A DNA stretch of 64,000 nt, from assembly GCA_002411015.1 (NCBI GenBank), contig DHPY01000075.1, positions 28,307-92,306 of the forward strand. The letters are read 5' to 3'. A program made the translations under genes and the position numbers. Within the stretch, counting starts at the first letter, position 1. Each line of letters starts with the position of its first letter. Below the pieces are notes generated by a model, which had not been told where the DNA came from, searched no databases, and saw only the letters and a list, made by a program, of their open reading frames with translations. Shown in pieces: positions 38,157 through 48,871 of this stretch. The DNA is from Armatimonadetes bacterium UBA5352. GTDB taxonomy: Bacteria; Armatimonadota; Zipacnadia; Zipacnadales; UBA5352.

Positions 38157-39236
38157 CTACCCGAACAACTCCTCGGCCCACCGGTCGGGTCTGTCGTGGA
38201 TGACCCGAGCGCGCAAGCCGCTCCGCGCCTCCCGCAGGGAAGGCAGGACCTTCGCAAGCGCCACCGCAGGATCCCTGTCGATCTCCTCGCCTCCGAAGAT
38301 CGGCTCCCGGCGGAAGCCAACCTCCGTCCATGCCCGAACCACCTGCCCTGCATCCTCGAAGACGAAGCTCGCATGATCGGTTTCTGAGAGATTCTCGTAC
38401 AGCTCTCCCTGTCGGGCCGGGCAGAGCGCGACGAGCCGCAGTCCATCATTCAGAGGGTTCAGCACGAGCCGCTCGATCGTGTTCGTCATCCTCTTCCAGT
38501 ATTCCCGGCGTTCGTCACAGATAATCTCCGTTCGCTCAATCTCAGCAACGTGGTCTGGAGTGGCCACAAAGGGCACACACGCGTGGATCATCCCGGCCTG
38601 AGCTTCGTTTCGCCAGGGGAGGCCCGCCGCTTCGAGAGTATCCGCAAAGTGTGAACGCGCGTCCTCGCTCCGGCGCGAGGTCTCGGACGCAAGCTCACGT
38701 GTGACTCGCCTGAGCCCGCCGATCCGCGTCTCGCCGAAGGGCCCGCTGAGCACAAGCTCGTAGCTGCCCGGATCGAACTGCGCGCCGGTCAGCTCCGCGT
38801 ACAGGCGCGCGCAGCAGTCCCCGTCATCGGGCACCCAGCGGAGGGCGTCATCGTAGCGGTAGAGTAGCCCGGGGCACTCGCCTGCGCCCTCGAAGCTGTC
38901 CATCGGCCCCTTGCCCGGAGGCGCCATCAGCGTGGCGAGCGCGTCGGCCCTCGCTCGGCGCAGCGCGATCTCAAGCTCGTCGGTGCGCCGGGCGAAGCGG
39001 CGGAGGGCGATGATGCTGCCATCGAAGGCGTTCACGACGCGGATGACGTAGCCCTCGCGGATTACCTGGCCGATCTCATGCGCCGGCCACGCCAGCAGGG
39101 CACCTGCAGTCCCTGTGGCGCGGAGGCCCTCCAGGCCGACGGTCAGATCGCAGGAGACCGCGCCGGGGAGGGCGGCGGATGGCGGCTCGATCTCGCCCGG
39201 CGCGGCGAAGCGGCACTCCTCAGCCAAGCTTCTCAC
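38157..39236 (-). CDS. Hypothetical protein (about 359 aa; start GTG 39236 or TTG 39227 overlapping upstream stop), sandwiched between two zinc-ribbon paralogs
   Basis: Long protein-like ORF. No ATG until far downstream. The ORF-track N-terminal 90 aa (to 39506) is low-complexity R/S-rich and overlaps the upstream gene, so was trimmed. No recognisable motifs. Confidence 0.4.
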   Translation of the reverse strand: MRSLAEECRFAAPGEIEPPSAALPGAVSCDLTVGLEGLRATGTAGALLAWPAHEIGQVIREGYVIRVVNAFDGSIIALRRFARRTDELEIALRRARADALATLMAPPGKGPMDSFEGAGECPGLLYRYDDALRWVPDDGDCCARLYAELTGAQFDPGSYELVLSGPFGETRIGGLRRVTRELASETSRRSEDARSHFADTLEAAGLPWRNEAQAGMIHACVPFVATPDHVAEIERTEIICDERREYWKRMTNTIERLVLNPLNDGLRLVALCPARQGELYENLSETDHASFVFEDAGQVVRAWTEVGFRREPIFGGEEIDRDPAVALAKVLPSLREARSGLRARVIHDRPDRWAEELFG

Positions 39237-39846
39237 CGCACTCGGAGCAGAAGCGCGCGCCCGCCTGGTTCTCGGAGCCGCACTTCGGGCACTCGAGCGA
39301 TGCACTGAGCGGCTTCCCGCACTCATTGCAGAACTTTCCGCCTGCAGCCTTGGCGCCGCAGTGCGGGCAGAGGACCACCGCGTCATCCTTAACGTTGATC
39401 TGCGATGTGTAGTCGGTGTTATTGATGCGCTCGCGGAGCTGCTCGATGCGCGCCTCCTGCTGCATCGCGGCGATCTCCTCGGTGGTGTCGGGAGCGCAGC
39501 GCTCACAGAGCCCCACGCTCTCGTTCCAGCAGACGTCGCAGAGCCACTCGCCGCAGCGGGAGCACTGGTGGAAGTGCGGCTTCACCTCCGCAACCGCCGT
39601 CTTCAGCGCGTTGTCATGCGCGGGGCCGCCAATGGCGCGCTGTACCTCATAGGCGCTCTGAGCGATGCCGTATCCGCGGCCGACGAGGTCGCTGACGGCG
39701 CGCAGCAGGCCTGCCGCGCGGCCCGCACCGTAGGGATGGAATTCGCTCATGTAGCCGTTGCCGCAACGTTCGCAGTAGAACTTGAACTGGAAGCCGACGT
39801 CGGTGCTCAAGTCCTCGTAGTTATCGGTGAACTGAATCAGTGCCAT
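39220..39846 (-). CDS. Double-zinc-ribbon protein (208 aa): N-domain paralogous to 37692-38084 plus C-terminal tandem CxxC ribbons; first gene of operon
   Basis: MALIQFTDNYEDLSTDVGFQFKFYCERC...HFHQCSRCGEWLCDVCWNESVGLCERCAP, then CPHCGAKAAGGKFCNECGKPL and CPKCGSENQAGARFCSECGEKL (DZR-like). RBS GGAGG about 10 nt upstream of ATG 39846. Confidence 0.55.
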   Translation of the reverse strand: MALIQFTDNYEDLSTDVGFQFKFYCERCGNGYMSEFHPYGAGRAAGLLRAVSDLVGRGYGIAQSAYEVQRAIGGPAHDNALKTAVAEVKPHFHQCSRCGEWLCDVCWNESVGLCERCAPDTTEEIAAMQQEARIEQLRERINNTDYTSQINVKDDAVVLCPHCGAKAAGGKFCNECGKPLSASLECPKCGSENQAGARFCSECGEKLG

Positions 39847-39954
39847 CTTGCGCACCCCTCCTGCAGTCATACCCGCGACGATGGAGGGCTCTTCCGCACG
39901 CGCACGGAATGTCCTGCATCGCCGGTCAATAACGTGCGCAAAGGACGGGTCAGG

Positions 39955-41625
39955 ATGTCCGCGATACAGATGCCTGAGATCTGGGGCGACGGGAAGCTCC
40001 TCACTTTCTCCGGGCTGGACGGTGCGACAAGCTGGTCGAACACACTCGTGGGCGGCGCGACCTCCGACCCGCTGGGGATCGTGCTGCACCTCAGGCCGGA
40101 CGTGCAGGTGATCTTCGGCGGAAAGCTGCAGGAGCAGAGCGGCCTCGTGCTGGGCGACGCGGTAGATGCGTCGGTCACTACCTCTGACGGTTCAGGCGAC
40201 CTCAGGTTCGCCTTCCGCGATTGCTGGACGATCGTTGGCGAGGTCACCGGCAACCTGACTGTCCGCCTGGATGGGCTGTCAGAGGCTGAGGCGGGCTTCG
40301 TCACGCTACTGAGCGAGCAGACCCTTGACGGCACGCGCTGGTGCATCGCGCTTTCGGCGGATTCGGCTGAGGGAGCCGCACAGCGCGCCGCAGACGCGAT
40401 CGGAGCCGACCTGGACGCGCTGATCGAGGCGCGCAGCAGCTTCGCCCGGAGCGTAGAGCCTGCTGGCGACGAGCGCACCTACCGCAAGTGCGCGGAGGTG
40501 CTCAAGCTCAACGCTCGTGCGCCGGAGGGGCGGATCGGGCGCCGCTGGACCACGCCCGACGTCTGGCCGCACCGGCACATGTGGCTGTGGGACTCGGCTT
40601 TCCACGCCATCGGCTGGCGTGAGCTTGACGGGGAGATGGCGCAGGACACGGTCCTCGCGGTGATTGAGCTGCAGGAGGCTGACGGGAAGATCCACCTGTG
40701 CGATGCGCCGCAGCGGCAGAACCAGCGGCACACGCAGCCGCCGGTCCTCGCCTGGAGCGCATGGCGCGTCTTCGAGGCCACGCGCGACGAGCAGTTCCTG
40801 CGCGCGTGCTACGGCCCGCTCGGGCGGTTCATGGACTGGCTCTTCGCGAACCGCGACGTCAACGGCAACGGGCTGCTGGAGTGGCTGAAGGAGTTCCATG
40901 TCGAGCGCTGCCGCTGCGGCGAGTCCGGCTGGGACAACTCCCCCCGCTTCGATCGCGAGATCATTGACGATCATGTGGACATCAACGCGATGGTTGTGCG
41001 GGAGATGCAGTTCCTCGCGCAGATGGCTGAGGTGCTGGGCGAGCGGAGCGACTGGCAGCAGCGCGCCGATGATCTCGCGGGGCTCGTCAACGAGCGCCTG
41101 TGGCACGAGGAGATCGGTCTGTACTTCGACCGCGGCCCCGGTGAGGACCCGTCGGAGTGGATGACGATGAAGTCGGGCGCGTGCCTCCTGCCGATGATCG
41201 CCGGGATCCCGAGCGAGGAGCAGGCGCGGCGGATGGTCGAGCAGCATCTCACGAACGAGAGCGAGTTCTGGGGCGCGACGCCGGTGCCGACGGTGGCCTT
41301 CGACGAGCCGCAGTATGATGACGACATGTGGCGCGGGCCAACATGGATGAACATCAACTTCCTGATCTGGGAGGGCCTCCGACGCTACGGCTTCGACGAC
41401 GTGGCGACCGAGCTGCGGAAGCGCTCGATGGAGGCGATCGAGCACTGGTACACGGGTGTGGGCGCGCCGCTGGGCGGGATCTTCGAGTACTACGACCCCG
41501 CGCGTGAGACGCACCCGTTCTGGCTGCACCGCAAGGGCGGCCAGTGCGGCGTAGGCGGAATCTCGGTCATCCGCGACTACGGCTGGACCGCCGCGACGTA
41601 TATCGGGTGGGCGAAGGGAAAGTAG
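39955..41625 (+). CDS. (alpha/alpha)6-barrel glycoside hydrolase, GH63-like (mannosyl-oligosaccharide glucosidase / YgjK / MGH family)
   Basis: WLWDSAFHAIG motif, LLEWLKE..., FWGATPVPTVAFDEPQYDDDMWRGPTWMNINFLI, typical of the GH63/GH37 six-hairpin fold. The ORF-track start 39115 overlaps opposite-strand genes, so ATG 39955 was chosen. Confidence 0.55.
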   Translation: MSAIQMPEIWGDGKLLTFSGLDGATSWSNTLVGGATSDPLGIVLHLRPDVQVIFGGKLQEQSGLVLGDAVDASVTTSDGSGDLRFAFRDCWTIVGEVTGNLTVRLDGLSEAEAGFVTLLSEQTLDGTRWCIALSADSAEGAAQRAADAIGADLDALIEARSSFARSVEPAGDERTYRKCAEVLKLNARAPEGRIGRRWTTPDVWPHRHMWLWDSAFHAIGWRELDGEMAQDTVLAVIELQEADGKIHLCDAPQRQNQRHTQPPVLAWSAWRVFEATRDEQFLRACYGPLGRFMDWLFANRDVNGNGLLEWLKEFHVERCRCGESGWDNSPRFDREIIDDHVDINAMVVREMQFLAQMAEVLGERSDWQQRADDLAGLVNERLWHEEIGLYFDRGPGEDPSEWMTMKSGACLLPMIAGIPSEEQARRMVEQHLTNESEFWGATPVPTVAFDEPQYDDDMWRGPTWMNINFLIWEGLRRYGFDDVATELRKRSMEAIEHWYTGVGAPLGGIFEYYDPARETHPFWLHRKGGQCGVGGISVIRDYGWTAATYIGWAKGK

Positions 41626-41638
41626 CGGCAGGAGGACT

Positions 41639-41700
41639 TGTTGCGGAAAAGCACAATGTTGCGCATATGAGCAACATGGGGTATAGTGGCAACATGAGAC
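41639..41700. repeat. Palindromic repeat cluster (ATGTTGC-n8-GCAACAT; additional GCAACAT copy) at 5' flank of frameshifted gene
   Basis: caATGTTGCgcatatgaGCAACATggggtatagtgGCAACATgag read directly. Related to the cluster at 42293-42355. Confidence 0.45.
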
Positions 41701-42295
41701 ACAAGCAGGCGCTCTCTCAGGTGCGACGGGTGCTGGAAGAGGTCCTGCGGACCTCAGTCAGGGAGATCTCGCCAGCACGAATCGACGGGTGTGAACCGGA
41801 CGCTCTGTTCCAGGCGTCGGGCCGCGAGTTTGTGGTCGAATACGAAGTGGACGCCTCGGCGGATCTGGTGGGTAGAGCCGCCTCGCTACTGCGGCATGTT
41901 CGGCGTGAGCGGCCTGACGCGGTACCCCTGGTCGTCGTTCCCTTTATGGGTGAGGTTGGTAAACGACTGTGCGAGGAAGCGGGCATCTCCTGGCTCGATC
42001 TGTCTGGCAACGCCAGCATTCGCGCCGCTGGTCTAGAAGTACGGATCGAGGGGTCGCCTAACGCCTACGCCCGCCCGGGGCGTCCCAAGAGCCTCTTCTC
42101 ACAGAGGCCCTGCGCCCGCTACTGGACGATCCGGATGCGTGCGAAGCGATGCGATGGCTTGAGGAGGATTACGCCACCATCGATAGCATAGGGCCGATGC
42201 GTCTGGCGGACTTTCAATCCAGAGCGGCCGATGACGAAGCACAGGGCGAGGCTTGGGCTCTCGTCCGCGAGCTTCTGCGTCGCCTCGAGATCTGA
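41667..42295 (+). pseudogene. Hypothetical protein gene (about 209 aa) with a -1 frameshift in a C/G homopolymer region (about 42062-42100), in a lower-GC islet
   Basis: Frame-2 ORF MSNMGYSGNMRHKQ...GSPNAYARPG... ends at 42191. Protein-like text continues in frame 1 (...PLLTEALRPLLDDPDACEAMRWLEEDYATIDSIGPMRLADFQSRAADDEAQGEAWALVRELLRRLEI, stop 42293-42295). Shift point near ccgcccgggg. Confidence 0.4.
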
Positions 42296-42355
42296 ATTGT
42301 TGCGCGAATCCCCATGCTGCGCATACGCGCAACATAGTGGATTTCAGCAACAGAG
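42293..42355. repeat. Palindromic repeat cluster (TTGTTGCGCG-n19-CGCGCAACAT) at 3' flank of frameshifted gene
   Basis: gaaTTGTTGCGCGaatccccatgctgcgcataCGCGCAACATagtgg. Shares TGCGCATA...GCAACAT...AGTGG...CAACA with the 5' flank. Confidence 0.45.
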
Positions 42356-42356
42356 G

Positions 42357-45275
42357 CTATTCTCCCACCGCCACCAGCTCCACGTCATCCACCCACACGG
42401 TGCCGGTGCCGTGCATGAGGTTCAGGTAGATGTGGAGCTGGTCGGCGGTCGGGTGGATGTCCTCCAGAACCAGCTCCCGCCACAGCCCCTCGGTGTTCGG
42501 CATGTTCAGCGCCATCGTCGGCTCCTGGCCGCCCTTCAGCCAAACCGCGAGCGTGCCCGCGAAGTCGTCGGTCGTGCGCGCCCAGAGCCGCAGCCGGTAT
42601 GTCTTCGCCTGATCGACCGGCCCTATCTCGCGATGCCATCTCCCCCACGCCCGGGTGGCGTATGCCTGCTCATCCTCCGCCGGCCCGAGCGCGCTGCAGG
42701 TCATCATCGCACAGGCATTTGCGGTGCGCGCGCCCTCAGTCGTGATCTCGAACTCGAAGTCGCCGATCTGCCGGTGCGGCAGCCAGGCCCCGGCGCCCTC
42801 CTCGAAGCCGCCGTCCGGGATGAGGTTCGCGCCCTGCTCCGCCTCGGGCTCTGGTACTGCGATCCACACCGGGCGCCAGATTCCGCCCGCGCCGGCGCTG
42901 TCCTCGACGCGCACGGCGAGCACGTTGGCCTCGCCCGGCCTGGCGACGTCCGTGATGTCCACCTCGAACGGCTTCTTCCACGACTCCGTATCGCCCTCAA
43001 ACGGGTAGGGCCGATCGAGCAGCCTCGTGCCGTTGACCCAGACCGTGCAGGCCTCGTCCACCGCGCCGAAGATCAGCCGCACGCGCCCGGCGCCCTCCGG
43101 CACCGTGAAGCTCGTGCGATACCACGCGAGGCCGTCGTAGTCGGTGGCATGCTCCTCACGCCACTGCCGCCCGGCCGCCAGTTCCTCCCACGAAGCGCTG
43201 ACCTCGGTCTCCGCCCAGCCGCCATCGCCGAACTCCTCCGCGAACCACTGCTGCTCCTCCCCCACACCGTCGGGGTCGAAGGCGAAGCACCACGGCCCGG
43301 GAAGCTGCTCGCCCGGCTGCGCGATGAGCTTCAGTAACTCGCGGTCCCACGTGTACCTCTCGCTCCAGGCGAGGTAGGCCATGTTGCAGACGAACTCGTC
43401 CTCGATGGAGGCGCGGAAGTCATCAAGCGCGGTGAGCGCATCGCGATACGGCGCGATGGCTCCGCTCTGGCGGTAGGCCTCGTAGACGCGCTGCACCTCA
43501 AGCGACATGCGCGCGTTCTGCAGGCCCTTGCGCAGCCACTGCACGCGCGCGAGCGCCACCGCGTCGTCAGCCGCGGCCGCCTCGGCGCTCGCGAGGAGCG
43601 CATCGCCTCGCGCGAATGCCTCCGGGGTGAAGATGACATCGCACTCGCGGTAGAAGTAGGACCAGTGCATCCCCGCCGGCCGCTCTGTGACCACATCGCA
43701 GACGGCGTCCCAGTGGTCGAAGTAGGCGCGCACCTCCTCGGCCGCCGGGCCGAAGGCGCTGTAGAACTCCCCGAGGACCTCCTCGACCGTGAGGTCCGGG
43801 CGCGCCGTCAGCCGCGCGAGCACGTAGAGATTCGGACCCTGCGTAGCGCACTGCCCGGTGAGCGAGTCGAAGTCAGTGGCGATCATCCCGTTCCCCGCGC
43901 AGTGGCGCATGTGCGCGCCGATCGTGTCCGCTGCGTACATTGGCATGGTGTGGCCGTCGAGCATGTAGTTCGGCCGCAGCATCATCTTTGCGCCGGTCGC
44001 AGCCCAGCCATCCCATTGGTCGAGCATCTCCTCGAGTTCGCCAGGGCCGCCGATGAGCCATCCGCCGGGCACGATGCCGATGTAGATGTGATCGTTCAGC
44101 TTCGTCTCGCGCGGCGGGAAGCGGTAGTTGCTGTAGGCGTAGCCGGTCACGACCGCCTCGGGATCGTGCTTTCGCGCCTCGGCCTGCACGGCGAGGAAGA
44201 AGCGCGCGTAGCGGTCGGAAAGGCTGCCGAGGAAGCGTATCCAGTCGCGATCGCCCGCCTCAAAGGCTGCGCGCGCGTGCTCCAGTCGCTCCTCCCACGG
44301 AACCTCGACGGCCGGATCCGGCACATCCCACGACAGGCAGCGCTCGCAGGTGCATTTCCCGGGAGTGTCGTTCTCGCTCGCATCAATGAAGGGGTCATCC
44401 GGAGTGCGCCTCGCCAGCCAGTCCTCGACGATCGCCTGATGGAAGGCAGGCTCGGAGACATCCATCGCCACGAGGTGCGCGGCACCTCCGTGGTAGGTGG
44501 GGTCGGAGCGGCGCGTGCCATCGGGAAGCAGGTTGAAGTACTCGGGGTGATCGGCGGAATAGCGATCCCACCATCCGGTGAAGGCGTGCGCCATGTCCAT
44601 GTTCACGCCGAGACCGAAGCGGTGCCTGCGCAGCCACCGCCCCTGCTCGGCAATCCAGCGGCTGCGGTTCTCCGGGTCGGCCCAGCCCTCGGTGCCTGCC
44701 ACCGTCGCTCCGCCATCCCGCCAGCGAGCGTGCACGAACGCCGGCTTGCCCGTGACGTCACGCGCGTCGAAGCTGATCTCCGCTCGCTGAGGCACGTCCT
44801 CCCCCAGCGGCCCCGGCCACAGCCAGCGCACACCAAGCTCGCGGTCGAGCAGGTCATACACCGCGAAGAGGGTGCCGACCTTCGTGCGGTTGGCGTGCTG
44901 GATGCCGCCCGGCTCGCCCTCGCTGTCGGTGCCGAGCAGGAAGAGGCGCTCCGCGTCTGCGCGGATGATGAAGCCGTTCGGCGACAGACCCTCTGTGCTG
45001 AGGCCCTCCTCCGCGGCAGCGCGTGCGGCGCCGATGTACACGCGCTGGCCATCGGCGGGCGCCTCCGCCTCGCGCACGACCGGAAGCTCTGCCCCGGTCG
45101 CGAGCCGCACGTGGTATGCAAGCTCATCGGCCGCCAACTGCTCGACCGGCAGGGGCTCGTCCGGCAGCACAATCGTGGCGACCGGCTGATGGTCCCGTAC
45201 AAGCTCCACGGCATCCGCGCCGAGCGCTGCCACGGTGATCGTCATGATAATCAGGCCGCTCCGCACACCACGCAC
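42357..45275 (-). CDS. Secreted multi-domain CAZyme-like protein (972 aa): DUF4838/GH20b-like N-region, GH2-N-type sugar-binding jelly roll, C-terminal CBM4_9-like module
   Basis: Signal peptide MRGVRSGLIIMTITVAALGADA. N-region YIGAARAAAEEGL...NGFIIRADAERLFLLGTDSEG. WYRTSFTVPEGAGRVRLIFGAVDEACTVWVNGTRL (Glyco_hydro_2_N-like). ANLIPDGGFEEGAGAW (CBM4_9-like). Confidence 0.5.
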   Translation of the reverse strand: MRGVRSGLIIMTITVAALGADAVELVRDHQPVATIVLPDEPLPVEQLAADELAYHVRLATGAELPVVREAEAPADGQRVYIGAARAAAEEGLSTEGLSPNGFIIRADAERLFLLGTDSEGEPGGIQHANRTKVGTLFAVYDLLDRELGVRWLWPGPLGEDVPQRAEISFDARDVTGKPAFVHARWRDGGATVAGTEGWADPENRSRWIAEQGRWLRRHRFGLGVNMDMAHAFTGWWDRYSADHPEYFNLLPDGTRRSDPTYHGGAAHLVAMDVSEPAFHQAIVEDWLARRTPDDPFIDASENDTPGKCTCERCLSWDVPDPAVEVPWEERLEHARAAFEAGDRDWIRFLGSLSDRYARFFLAVQAEARKHDPEAVVTGYAYSNYRFPPRETKLNDHIYIGIVPGGWLIGGPGELEEMLDQWDGWAATGAKMMLRPNYMLDGHTMPMYAADTIGAHMRHCAGNGMIATDFDSLTGQCATQGPNLYVLARLTARPDLTVEEVLGEFYSAFGPAAEEVRAYFDHWDAVCDVVTERPAGMHWSYFYRECDVIFTPEAFARGDALLASAEAAAADDAVALARVQWLRKGLQNARMSLEVQRVYEAYRQSGAIAPYRDALTALDDFRASIEDEFVCNMAYLAWSERYTWDRELLKLIAQPGEQLPGPWCFAFDPDGVGEEQQWFAEEFGDGGWAETEVSASWEELAAGRQWREEHATDYDGLAWYRTSFTVPEGAGRVRLIFGAVDEACTVWVNGTRLLDRPYPFEGDTESWKKPFEVDITDVARPGEANVLAVRVEDSAGAGGIWRPVWIAVPEPEAEQGANLIPDGGFEEGAGAWLPHRQIGDFEFEITTEGARTANACAMMTCSALGPAEDEQAYATRAWGRWHREIGPVDQAKTYRLRLWARTTDDFAGTLAVWLKGGQEPTMALNMPNTEGLWRELVLEDIHPTADQLHIYLNLMHGTGTVWVDDVELVAVGE

Positions 45276-47106: not shown

Positions 47107-47910
47107 TCAGTCGTCGCCAGCCGCCGCGATGGCCTCCTCATCTTCCCTGCATTCAGCCTTCGCCGGTCGCCGCCTCAGCTGACGCGCCCCAGCTTTGCAG
47201 ACCCGACGACGTGCGTTCTCGGCCTCATCCCCCTCAAGGGTCTCACGCCGTAGCACTTCCTGAACGAGCTTCTCTCGTATCTCGTCGGTGTCCACCTTCA
47301 CGTCCGGGTTTACACGGCGCATCTCCCGCCGAATTGCCTTCAGTACTTCATCCGAGACAACAATGGCGGCAATCAGGTGACGGCTCGTCGCCTCATGATG
47401 GCAGACGAAGTCGTCGAGCACGTTCTTCTCGATGCCCTCGCGTGTCAACAGATAAAGAAGCTCCTGACAACCGCTCTGATTGGCAGAGATCTCCAACAGA
47501 TCAATCTCAGCTACCTGTCGAGCCTCAATCGGCTTCCCGAAAATCACCTGATAGACGCGCCACTTGACCCCGTTTGTCAGAATGACCCACTCGACGCCCT
47601 GGTTGGCTGCGTAGTCCAGCGCCTGCCTTATGTGGGTGTCTCTGAAGTCAGTGCCGATGGCTTTGATCTCGATGACGATGCGGATGACATCGGCAATCTT
47701 AATGACCAAATCGCAGTAGGTACCCCGAATTGAGTACTCTGAGGTGATCTCGGTGTACTTGTCGTACCCGAAGAGGTCGGCCAGCACGTCGGTCACTATC
47801 ACCACGGTATCCGACTCGTTGCAGTCCCGGGCGCGAGCGGAGTTCAGGATGGGCTGGTACTGCTTCAACGCCGCTGTCATGCGCTGTGCGACTCTTGCAG
47901 GTATCGCCAT
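47107..47910 (-). CDS. Standalone restriction-endonuclease-fold (PD-(D/E)xK) protein resembling the type I restriction HsdR N-terminal nuclease domain (HSDR_N-like); lower-GC islet gene
   Basis: ITSEYSIRGTYCDLVIKIADVIRIVIEIKAIG carries the D...E-x-K catalytic pattern. Strong RBS GGGAGGG 7 nt upstream of ATG 47910. Visibly lower GC (about 52-55%). Charged C-terminal tail. Confidence 0.5.
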   Translation of the reverse strand: MAIPARVAQRMTAALKQYQPILNSARARDCNESDTVVIVTDVLADLFGYDKYTEITSEYSIRGTYCDLVIKIADVIRIVIEIKAIGTDFRDTHIRQALDYAANQGVEWVILTNGVKWRVYQVIFGKPIEARQVAEIDLLEISANQSGCQELLYLLTREGIEKNVLDDFVCHHEATSRHLIAAIVVSDEVLKAIRREMRRVNPDVKVDTDEIREKLVQEVLRRETLEGDEAENARRRVCKAGARQLRRRPAKAECREDEEAIAAAGDD

Positions 47911-48025
47911 GGAATGACCCTCCCGCAGCATGCGTCTGTACGTTCGTACGACGCAAGTCAGCGGAGGGTTCCCATTCTTGTCGTATATACCTCCATTGTG
48001 TTCCGCCCCCCGCCCAAAAAAGAAC

Positions 48026-48871
48026 CTACCACAACCCCGCGACCGCCGGGACTTCCGCGCGCTCCCTGAGGGTGATCGCGCCATTGCTGCAGGCGCTGCG
48101 GCAGACGCCGCAGCCGTAGCAGGCGCGCTGGTCCACCTCCACCTTCCGGTCCGCGGGAGTGAAGGTCAGCGCGCCAAACTGGCAGAGCCGCATACAGGAG
48201 CGGCAGCCCGTGCAGAGGTCCGGGTCCACCTCCGCCACATACTCCGCCCGCCACATGACCTTCAGGTCATGCACGACCGTAGACTGCATCGCGAGGCAGC
48301 TCTGCCGATCGCAGTTGCAGATGCCGCCGATGTAGGGCGTCCTGAAGGTCCAGACCGTGTGGCAGAGGCCATCCTTCTCATGCTCGGCGAAGGCGGCGGT
48401 CGCCTCCTCCGCGGTCAGTTCGTCATACTCATGCGTGTCCGGCCCGTGGAGGAAGCTCGAGTCTATCTCCTCCATCAGCTTCCCCGCCTCGCCGAGGTGA
48501 GGGGCCATCGAGATCGCGTAGCAGTAGCCGACGTCGCGCCCGAGGGTGCCGCGCCGGCAGATGCAGGCGATCCTGGCGATCGAGTTCAGGAAGCCGAAGA
48601 TCGTCTCGATCTCCTCCAGCGGCACCACCTGCCCGTAGTGCTGCTTCTTCATCCGCCGCGTGATGGCGGCCTTCGCCATCCGCTGGATGAAGCCCGGCGT
48701 GCGGTCAAGCTTCTCCATCATCGGGATGGCTCGCCCGGTCTCCTCCGGCTTTCCGAGAAAGCCCTCGATGAATCTGCGCCGCCGCAGGTCGCTCATGAGG
48801 TTCTCGGAGTAGTTCTTCGCCTGCAGATACCACTTCTTCCCGTCACCGTGCTGCGCGCAGAACTGGCACAT
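48026..48871 (-). CDS. Multi-cluster iron-sulfur protein with C-terminal 2x[4Fe-4S] ferredoxin domain; function unknown
   Basis: CTGCRSCMRLC and CYGCGVCRSAC ferredoxin motifs, plus additional Cys clusters (MCQFCAQHG, CICRRG...C, CNCDRQSC). Confidence 0.5.
   Translation of the reverse strand: MCQFCAQHGDGKKWYLQAKNYSENLMSDLRRRRFIEGFLGKPEETGRAIPMMEKLDRTPGFIQRMAKAAITRRMKKQHYGQVVPLEEIETIFGFLNSIARIACICRRGTLGRDVGYCYAISMAPHLGEAGKLMEEIDSSFLHGPDTHEYDELTAEEATAAFAEHEKDGLCHTVWTFRTPYIGGICNCDRQSCLAMQSTVVHDLKVMWRAEYVAEVDPDLCTGCRSCMRLCQFGALTFTPADRKVEVDQRACYGCGVCRSACSNGAITLRERAEVPAVAGLW

Follow-up and report, generated by a model that had tools for sequence, protein, structure and literature searches.

A probable recently decayed AbiE-type toxin-antitoxin module with two copies of a predicted operator palindrome in an Armatimonadota-like genome

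The stretch of DNA analyzed here (the window, 64,000 nt of contig DHPY01000075.1 of Armatimonadetes bacterium UBA5352) contains a short islet between a GH63/MGH1-like glycoside hydrolase gene and a convergent DUF4838/GH2_N gene (Table 1), in which one apparently frameshifted gene stands between two clusters of palindromic repeats. By comparison with related loci we read this islet as a recently decayed member of the AbiE-type toxin-antitoxin (TA) systems, and its decay as ordinary gene decay. The islet gene is in all likelihood not one frameshifted gene but two genes, the beginning of an AbiEi-like antitoxin gene and the end of an AbiEii-like toxin gene, fused by a deletion of ~1.29 kb. The palindrome cluster on the 5′ side is the predicted promoter-operator of the module and the cluster on the 3′ side a second copy of it. 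The core of this account, i.e. module, deletion and operator, is held with good confidence, whereas the role of the 3′ copy is held much less surely.

An earlier note on the same DNA had described a lower-GC islet with a broken gene that could be repaired to a single protein of 209 aa. The lowered GC content was confirmed (0.613 for 41626–42356 vs 0.672 ± 0.026 in same-sized windows of the 64 kb, lowest 2.3%), and the open reading frame (ORF), both of its quoted translations and the palindrome clusters on either flank with their shared substrings read as stated. The single repaired protein did not survive the comparison, since its halves match two different proteins. In a protein search with the joined 209-aa sequence, proteins of ~360 aa matched the first ~145 residues only (P0002 75%, P0003 72%, P0004 57%), and the last ~63 residues were matched only by the 282-aa protein P0058 (84%). 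The long proteins go on for ~215 residues past the position of the window's ...RPGRPKSLFS, and the window's EALRPLLDDPDA...LEI corresponds to the very last residues of P0058. Searches of Pfam and NCBIfam with both halves and with the joined protein gave nothing usable, because the latter is a chimera of an uncatalogued domain and a 63-aa tail.

At the nucleotide level, blastn aligned window positions 41642–42100 with positions 1–459 of the related locus L002 and window positions 42099–42497 with L002 1747–2149. As these segments flank L002 460–1746, about 1,287 bp which are present in the intact relatives are missing from the window. A base-level view against L001 and L002 places the end of the first-gene homology at ...CTCTTCTCAC and the start of the second-gene homology at (C)AGAGGCC. 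Furthermore, the window sequence recurs with 100% identity across this junction in two Logan assemblies from different runs, over 1,769 bp in SRR32304672 and over 1,645 bp in SRR32304670, so that a single mishap of assembly cannot account for the lesion.

At the amino acid level the 5′ remnant (abiEi′) is 71–82% identical to the N-terminal parts encoded in L002, L084 and L001; for L003 the value is 57%. It lacks the winged helix-turn-helix (wHTH) and AbiEi_2 domains, which occupy residues ~145–350 of the intact proteins; past the junction its frame continues out of frame to a stop at 42189–42191, and the resulting 165-aa ORF is identical to P0001. The 3′ remnant (abiEii′), which is 84% identical to the C-terminus of P0058, is 71% identical to the L002 toxin gene. 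All invariant columns of the toxin family (G43, G44, D67, D69, D121, K199 and D200 of P0058) lie upstream of residue ~218, at which the remnant starts. With the DNA-binding and antitoxic domains of the antitoxin and the catalytic core of the toxin deleted, both activities would be lost, and the module in the window is to all appearances dead: neither DNA binding nor antitoxicity nor catalysis can be expected to survive. The inactivation which the earlier note had offered as one option thus holds, by way of a ~1.29-kb deletion that removed domains of both genes. The dN/dS ratios of both remnants against intact relatives (0.11–0.22) match those between intact relatives (0.15–0.21), which implies that nearly all of the divergence accrued under selection and that the deletion is recent; dS between the window and its relatives is near 0.75–1.0. 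Elsewhere in the antitoxin family pseudogenisation appears to be frequent; the short homologues P0021, P0079, P0083 and P0070 in public data are truncated or lose their reading frame in the wHTH or past it.

The intact module is found in L001, L002, L003/L004, L085 and L092, where a ~360-aa antitoxin-like gene is followed by an overlapping gene of ~280 aa (26–1123 and 1101–1943 in L002; 8001–9086 and 9070–9906 in L003). The same antitoxin-then-toxin order recurs in most of the 48 distant loci examined. The relatives thus show the bicistronic arrangement of an antitoxin gene directly upstream of an overlapping or abutting toxin gene, of which just the outermost part on either side is left in the window, with order and orientation unchanged. 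The intact antitoxin consists of a NucS-like nuclease-fold domain, a winged helix of the MarR/ArsR type (PF12802) and an AbiEi C-terminal domain, with matches to MarR_2 at 1.3e-7 on P0003 and to AbiEi_2 (PF09952) at 3.7e-7 on P0010, precomputed for many family members; P0010, P0040 and P0053 carry the NCBI name type IV toxin-antitoxin system AbiEi family antitoxin. Hence the combination of winged helix and AbiEi-type C-terminal domain that marks such an antitoxin is present in the relatives, and both domains are deleted in the window. The fold of the N-terminal domain is NucS/AF1548-like (P0003, P0004, P0010 and alignment A1; residues ~45–60 of P0003). Many family members exhibit a PD...EYK motif in it, the lysine of which is replaced in the window's own clade (EYE in the window, EYT in P0002, EYV in P0005).

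Within the family of the second gene, 37 of 79 members match the AbiEii model PF08843 at E ≤ 0.01 (best 4.2e-10) and 28 match NTP_transf_8. Two members, P0194 and P0203, bear the NCBI name AbiEii/AbiGii, and the invariant columns GG...DxD...D...KD fit a nucleotidyltransferase. The second gene is accordingly read as that of a probable, divergent AbiEii-like nucleotidyltransferase and predicted toxin. At the distant relatives L045, L007 and L046 a conserved third ORF follows directly after the toxin stop, with similar 5′ sequences in all three, which hints at a putative three-gene variant of the module.

Both flanks of the islet carry the element TGTTGC-N11/12-TGYTGC-N8-GCAACA-N12-GCAACA. This four-half-site pattern was found in the 64 kb only at 41639–41694 and 42298–42352 and never in 100 shuffles, and 7 of the 17 TGTTGC/GCAACA hexamers of the window fall into the two elements of ~56 bp. 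In direct register the elements are 72% identical (46 nt) and in inverted register 84% complementary (43 nt); both matches hold because each element is itself palindromic. In the 5′ element the −35-like TTGCGC lies inside the inner-left half-site and the −10 between the inner-right and the outer-right half-site, and the outer-right GCAACA runs into an ATG, 7 nt after the −10. The orthologous 5′ copies of L002, L084 and L003 align to that of the window without gaps, with the −35-like TTGCGC in the inner-left half-site, TATAAT at the same place 17 nt farther on and the ATG 7 nt later. This is the geometry of a leaderless transcript, which argues for a start codon at 41694 (MRHKQ, as in P0001 and P0005) and not at ATG 41667, the start proposed in the earlier note; the mRNA is apparently leaderless and 41694 the likelier start. 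ATG 41667 lies within the operator palindrome, and the M(R/S)NMGYNGNM of some gene calls results from translation of the operator. Just ahead of the ATG that adjoins the operator, L006 and L008 have an in-frame TGA.

The same layout, with another half-site, was observed in relatives of only 38–48% identity from many other environments: CTTGCT-N12-CTTGAC-N6-GTCAAG-N6-TATTTA-(g/a)aCAAc-ATG. Three correctly spaced half-sites precede the antitoxin gene in 23 of 39 non-identical distant loci, compared with 6 of 854 control pieces, and the full pattern of four sites, −10 and start occurs in 9 of the 39 loci vs 0 of 881 controls. At L092, where a 52%-identical module is located in an unrelated context after dnaE, ATGTTGCG/CGCAACAT half-sites are found upstream, so that the half-site evidently travels with the module. 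From this conservation we infer that the 5′ palindrome cluster is the module's predicted promoter-operator, as had been suspected in one of the options of the earlier note. The only terminator-like call fell on the minus strand of the window's 5′ element and is within chance expectation.

The 3′ cluster is shown by alignment to be, as far as sequence can tell, a paralogous copy of the 5′ operator that lacks the −10. In the window it has neither a −10 box (the position reads GATTTC) nor an ATG, and it occupies the gap between the stop codons of the toxin gene and the convergent gene; 3′ copies generally sit 2–3 nt past the toxin stop and a few nt before the convergent one. The 3′ copy is conserved in this Armatimonadota-like clade, with orthologous copies identified in L001, L002, L085 and, remodelled, in L090; L089 ends before the toxin stop, and L091 has a different downstream context and no element. 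Between the two copies of L002 the only differences are those in the −10 hexamer (TATAAT in the 5′ copy, GATTAA in the 3′ copy). The repeated unit extends from the outer-left half-site to about ATGAGGC, i.e. over the first two codons.

No other copy of the palindrome was found elsewhere in the window, and the ~484 kb of fetched loci yielded no copies beyond those described here. Among 185,579 representative genomes the exact core of 20 specified bases occurs at two loci only, L080 and L081, both directly past the orthologous GH63 gene; each has the element once and lacks a TA homologue within 8 kb. The proposed comparison with empty sites in related genomes was therefore informative, since these are solo copies without a TA module. 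L080, a metagenome-assembled genome (MAG) of Candidatus Zipacnadia (Armatimonadota), has the solo element between GH63 and the DUF4838 gene. In the WS1 MAG L081 (143–1243) an FGE-sulfatase gene (PF03781) with its own TTGACA/TAGATT-like promoter lies between the solo element and the DUF4838 homologue; this separation indicates that the element stays with GH63 and not with the convergent gene. A search for further syntenic loci with the GH63 protein gave 9 matches, mostly distant or truncated. Two matches of the core palindrome in viral contigs were dismissed as chance, as they have no four-site layout and no TA homologue nearby.

Across intact and solo loci the element cores are 84–95% identical, compared with 78–86% for the adjoining coding DNA, which, with dS near the values given above, argues for constraint on the element; the window's own operator copies are only slightly more diverged than those of the relatives. 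The 3′ and solo copies are self-complementary at 50–52 of 58 positions, the 5′ copies at 38–42 of 58. Very stable RNA hairpins were calculated for the 3′ and solo copies of the relatives (−42 to −49 kcal/mol, z −6 to −8.6). The 3′ copy of the window gave −27.7 kcal/mol on the plus and −37.5 kcal/mol on the minus strand (z −3 and −4), and its 5′ copy −21 kcal/mol. In the 3′ element of L090 (1215–1331) only one inverted repeat is left, TGTTGCGCACAT-N14-ATGTGCGCAACA, in which what was the outer-right site has become the partner of the inner-left one, as if a compensating change had preserved a hairpin. An E-value-mode Rfam scan of 41000–43000 returned only a sub-threshold miRNA-hairpin match, at the 3′ palindrome.

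At L085 (400–540 and 2360–2480; also L086) the same GH63/DUF4838 site is occupied by a module of the P0005/P0006 clade with a window-type 3′ element downstream. This module is 50% identical to P0002/P0003, compared with 64–65% for the L003 module, and its own 5′ operator is a degenerate AT-rich variant, while its GH63 flank is 86% identical to that of the window and thus closer than the flank of L003 (80%). The phylogenies of TA module and flank are incongruent, which suggests a cassette replacement at this locus.

Taken together, the following history would account for the islet. An AbiE-like module flanked by direct operator copies resided between the GH63 and DUF4838 genes in this clade. 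Its wHTH antitoxin would have repressed its own, apparently leaderless, transcript at a four-site operator that overlaps the −35 and −10 and abuts the start, the half-sites being arranged as two direct and then two inverted ones in a near-palindrome of ~56 bp. In this genome a recent, microhomology-associated deletion of ~1.29 kb removed the wHTH and AbiEi domains of the antitoxin together with the first ~218 codons of the toxin, so that abiEi codons 1–136 are now joined, in another frame, to the 63 codons with which abiEii ends. The 3′ copy would derive from a TA promoter, perhaps as the relic of a second cassette; most likely its role is that of a roadblock or stable hairpin separating the convergent units, and possibly also of a second binding site of the antitoxin. 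Recombination between the two direct copies would excise the module and spare a single solo element, the state found in two related genomes.

Several results weigh against this reading or parts of it. The closest relatives of the toxin score 20.1–22.4 bits on PF08843, just below the gathering threshold of 22.5, and a search of the PDB with the toxin profile gave no meaningful sequence match. The antitoxin carries an extra N-terminal nuclease-fold domain which is absent from the characterised AbiEi and Rv2827c proteins. A strict sigma-70 scan calls no promoter at the 5′ element, since its −35 matches only 3 of 6 positions. The 3′ copy was found in 0 of 22 distant relatives, and neither the solo element nor the 3′ copy of the window is called in a terminator scan, because an adequate T-run is missing (the tails after the 3′ and solo hairpins read TATTT/TTTTA only). 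Moreover, the solo copies are near-perfect palindromes (52/58) without a neighbouring antitoxin, so that their maintenance may be independent of AbiEi, and the divergent TA module of L085 beside a window-type 3′ element is not predicted by a simple local duplication of the operator.

AbiE, which consists of AbiEi and AbiEii, is a type IV TA and abortive-infection system of Streptococcus agalactiae and Lactococcus (PMC3985639; PMC7319586), in which AbiEi binds two 23-bp inverted repeats overlapping its promoter (PMC7319586). As in AbiE, the genes here form a bicistronic operon that starts with the antitoxin, part of the toxin family is recognised by the Pfam model of AbiEii/DUF1814 nucleotidyltransferases, the antitoxin combines a winged-helix DNA-binding domain with an AbiEi-type C-terminal domain, and inverted repeats overlap the promoter, as would be expected for negative autoregulation. 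Unlike AbiE, the antitoxin has the additional NucS-like nuclease-fold domain of ~140 aa at its N-terminus, the match of the closest relatives' toxins to PF08843 is marginal, and the operator is composed of four short half-sites in one palindrome of ~56 bp instead of two 23-bp repeats. The apparently leaderless start and the second operator copy downstream of the toxin are further differences, and the module of this window is dead. In terms of layout the closest precedent for a four-site operator is Rv2827c-Rv2826c of M. tuberculosis, with the AbiEi-family autoregulator Rv2827c and four promoter repeats, all of which are bound and overlap the promoter (PMC7319586). However, these repeats are 23 bp long and arranged in two pairs over ~130 bp (PMC7319586), Rv2827c has no N-terminal nuclease-like domain and no downstream operator copy has been reported.

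Solo long terminal repeats and similar single-repeat scars, which arise when flanking direct repeats recombine, offer an analogy, not a family relationship: a cassette lies between two direct copies in some genomes, and a single copy without the cassette is found at the same position in related ones. The repeat here is, however, a 58-bp promoter-operator palindrome and not the terminus of a retroelement. Integron attC cassettes and the pdif modules of Acinetobacter often carry TA genes. They resemble the present locus as small TA-bearing units bounded by imperfect palindromes at a site that varies between relatives. In contrast to them, no integrase or Xer-type context was found here, there are neither attC R″/R′ cores nor a dif 11-6-11 layout, and the palindrome is the cassette's own (predicted) operator. 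An assignment to attC was rejected by inspection, since the element reads TGTTGC...GCAACA with GTT first and AAC last, no 7-mer fits the cores and no tyrosine recombinase was seen in the scanned neighbours. A resemblance to dif/Xer sites (TGCGCATA) was likewise rejected by inspection for lack of the 11-6-11 layout.

With regard to the origin of the islet, the earlier note had mapped a frame shift to the C/G-rich run ccgcccgggg and considered an assembly indel. A single gene of ~209 aa broken by a 1-nt homopolymer indel, be it a true frameshift or an assembly error, could draw on the position of this run ~25 nt upstream of the frame change. The run (42070–42079) is, however, in frame and encodes a conserved ARPGRP motif, and homology switches between the two genes only at 42100–42103. 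As the halves match two different proteins whose genes' corresponding parts lie ~1.29 kb apart in relatives, as the repaired protein matches no Pfam or NCBIfam model and as both further assemblies agree over 1.6–1.8 kb, this explanation is refuted by the deletion junction and its chance of being right is practically nil. Only marginally better stands a MITE- or IS-like miniature element that has terminal inverted repeats of 43 nt and carries a passenger gene, which we consider highly improbable. Its arms at 41639–41681 and 42310–42352 are indeed complementary at the 84% given above, and the GC content of the islet is below that of its surroundings; yet the inverted match follows from self-complementarity, the elements being direct repeats as well, and neither a transposase among the scanned neighbouring genes nor a target-site duplication was found. 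There are only two copies in the 64 kb, the two occurrences of the exact core in representative genomes are at the same syntenic site, and in distant relatives the 5′ arm is the gene's own predicted promoter-operator. Thus the palindromes are most probably not terminal inverted repeats of an insertion element, and of the small mobile or regulated cassette envisaged in the earlier note the regulated part stands, as a small and apparently self-regulated accessory cassette, whereas the insertion-element part does not.

The remaining alternatives concern the palindrome itself. The 3′ and solo elements could be ordinary hairpin terminators between convergent genes, operator-like or co-opted, with no link to an antitoxin left. 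The location between convergent stop codons, the very stable hairpins, the higher self-complementarity compared with the 5′ copies, the single inverted repeat kept in L090 with its apparently re-paired outer-right site and the persistence of solo copies without a neighbouring TA module all agree with this. An adequate U-tract is missing, though, and the terminator scan was negative on L080 and on the window's 3′ copy; in L081 the element adjoins GH63 and is followed by a co-directional gene, and L001 and L002 retain all four half-sites and the spacer sequences, which a hairpin alone would not require. We regard a terminator as a real possibility that falls somewhat short of probable; it concerns the 3′ copy only and is compatible with the decayed, operator-flanked AbiE-type module. 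Distinctly less plausible, and in our estimate unlikely, is an attachment-like recombination site of ~58 bp, at which AbiE-like cassettes would enter and leave by crossover within the palindrome, in a Campbell-type reaction that depends on RecA or is aided by the nuclease-fold domain of the antitoxin, the flanking repeats being attL/attR-like products. Such a site would explain why direct copies, each reaching from the outer-left half-site to about ATGAGGC, enclose the cassette exactly, why related genomes have a single copy without a cassette at the same site and why L085 carries another AbiE-like lineage (50%) there with the same 3′ element, and the NucS-like domain with its PD...EYK motif in many members could supply a nuclease. 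On the other hand, no recombinase, integrase or transposase is encoded among the neighbouring genes scanned, the EYK lysine is replaced in this very clade, the attC core motifs (RYYYAAC/GTTRRRY) are absent by inspection and none of the 22 distant relatives has a 3′ copy. Furthermore, the element recurs as the predicted promoter-operator of the family where the genomic context is unrelated, and therefore belongs to the cassette and not to the chromosome, and homologous deletion between direct repeats explains the solo sites more simply, without site-specific machinery. That the 58-bp operator palindrome doubles as an attachment site and that the nuclease-domain AbiE-like modules are autonomous mini-cassettes, inserting beside a resident copy of their own operator and leaving it again by excision, is a trace less probable still. 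If it were true, the locus would be a hotspot for TA cassettes, found occupied, swapped (L085) or solo (L080/L081), and a TA module would mobilise itself through its own regulatory site.

The features of the islet and its flanks are collected in Table 1. The GH63/MGH1-like gene is outside the module and marks a conserved insertion site; it is found ahead of the module or of the solo element in L003, L084, L085, L080 and L081. Its likely start was read from the translation, and the 836-aa ORF at 39115–41625 (+) seems over-extended, with ATG 39955 as the more likely start; the upstream part of this ORF overlaps a Pfam-supported double-zinc-ribbon gene on the opposite strand (39220–40089, −). The convergent 972-aa protein is 73–78% identical in amino acid sequence to its counterparts in L001, L002, L080, L081 and L085. 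As judged from its annotated neighbours, the module remnant lies in a glycan-degradation neighbourhood without mobility genes, in an uncultured Armatimonadota-like genome. Farther downstream, a 325-aa ORF (47107–48084, −) lies where the GC content of the whole window is lowest (about 0.56); a nuclease-like HSDR_N_2 domain (2.9e-7) is all that Pfam recognises in it, and it would be another isolated accessory or defence-like gene amid glycoside-hydrolase genes.

Table 1. Coordinates of the islet, its predicted elements and its flanking genes (window positions).
Feature	Position	Strand	Details
GH63/MGH1-like glycoside hydrolase gene, upstream flank	39955..41625	+	Pfam MGH1-like_GH 2.3e-57, Trehalase, Glyco_hydro_63
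Islet	41626-42356 (731 bp)		From GH63/MGH1-like stop (41625) to stop of convergent DUF4838/GH2_N gene (42357)
5′ element	41638..41696	+	Half-sites TGTTGC 41639, 41657; GCAACA 41671, 41689
Predicted promoter parts of 5′ element	41659-41664; 41682-41687; 41694		−35-like TTGCGC, 17-nt spacer, −10 TATAGT; ATG
abiEi′ remnant	41694..42102	+	Codons 1-136 of AbiEi-like antitoxin; N-terminal NucS-like (PD-(D/E)xK-fold) domain only
Deletion junction	42100..42103	.	2-5 nt microhomology around TC.CA
abiEii′ remnant	42104..42295	+	Last 63 codons and TGA stop of AbiEii-like nucleotidyltransferase, predicted toxin
3′ element	42297..42352	+	Half-sites TGTTGC 42298, TGCTGC (mutated) 42315, GCAACA 42329, 42347
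DUF4838 + GH2_N protein gene (972 aa), convergent downstream flank	42357..45275	−	Pfam; outside the module

For annotation, the islet is a reminder that the two halves of an apparently frameshifted gene have to be shown to come from one gene before they are joined, since a repair would here create a chimeric protein that never existed. The non-routine aspects of the locus are only two, namely the conserved downstream or solo operator copy and the family-wide, apparently leaderless four-site operator predicted here. With respect to the biology of the family, the locus displays stages of one TA module at one site, i.e. intact, replaced, internally deleted and reduced to a solo operator, and a conserved operator layout with an apparently leaderless start is defined for a large AbiEi subfamily with a nuclease-fold N-terminal domain. 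Of all this, only the downstream or solo operator copy could lead to something new, its candidate roles being those of a regulatory decoy, roadblock, terminator or recombination site.

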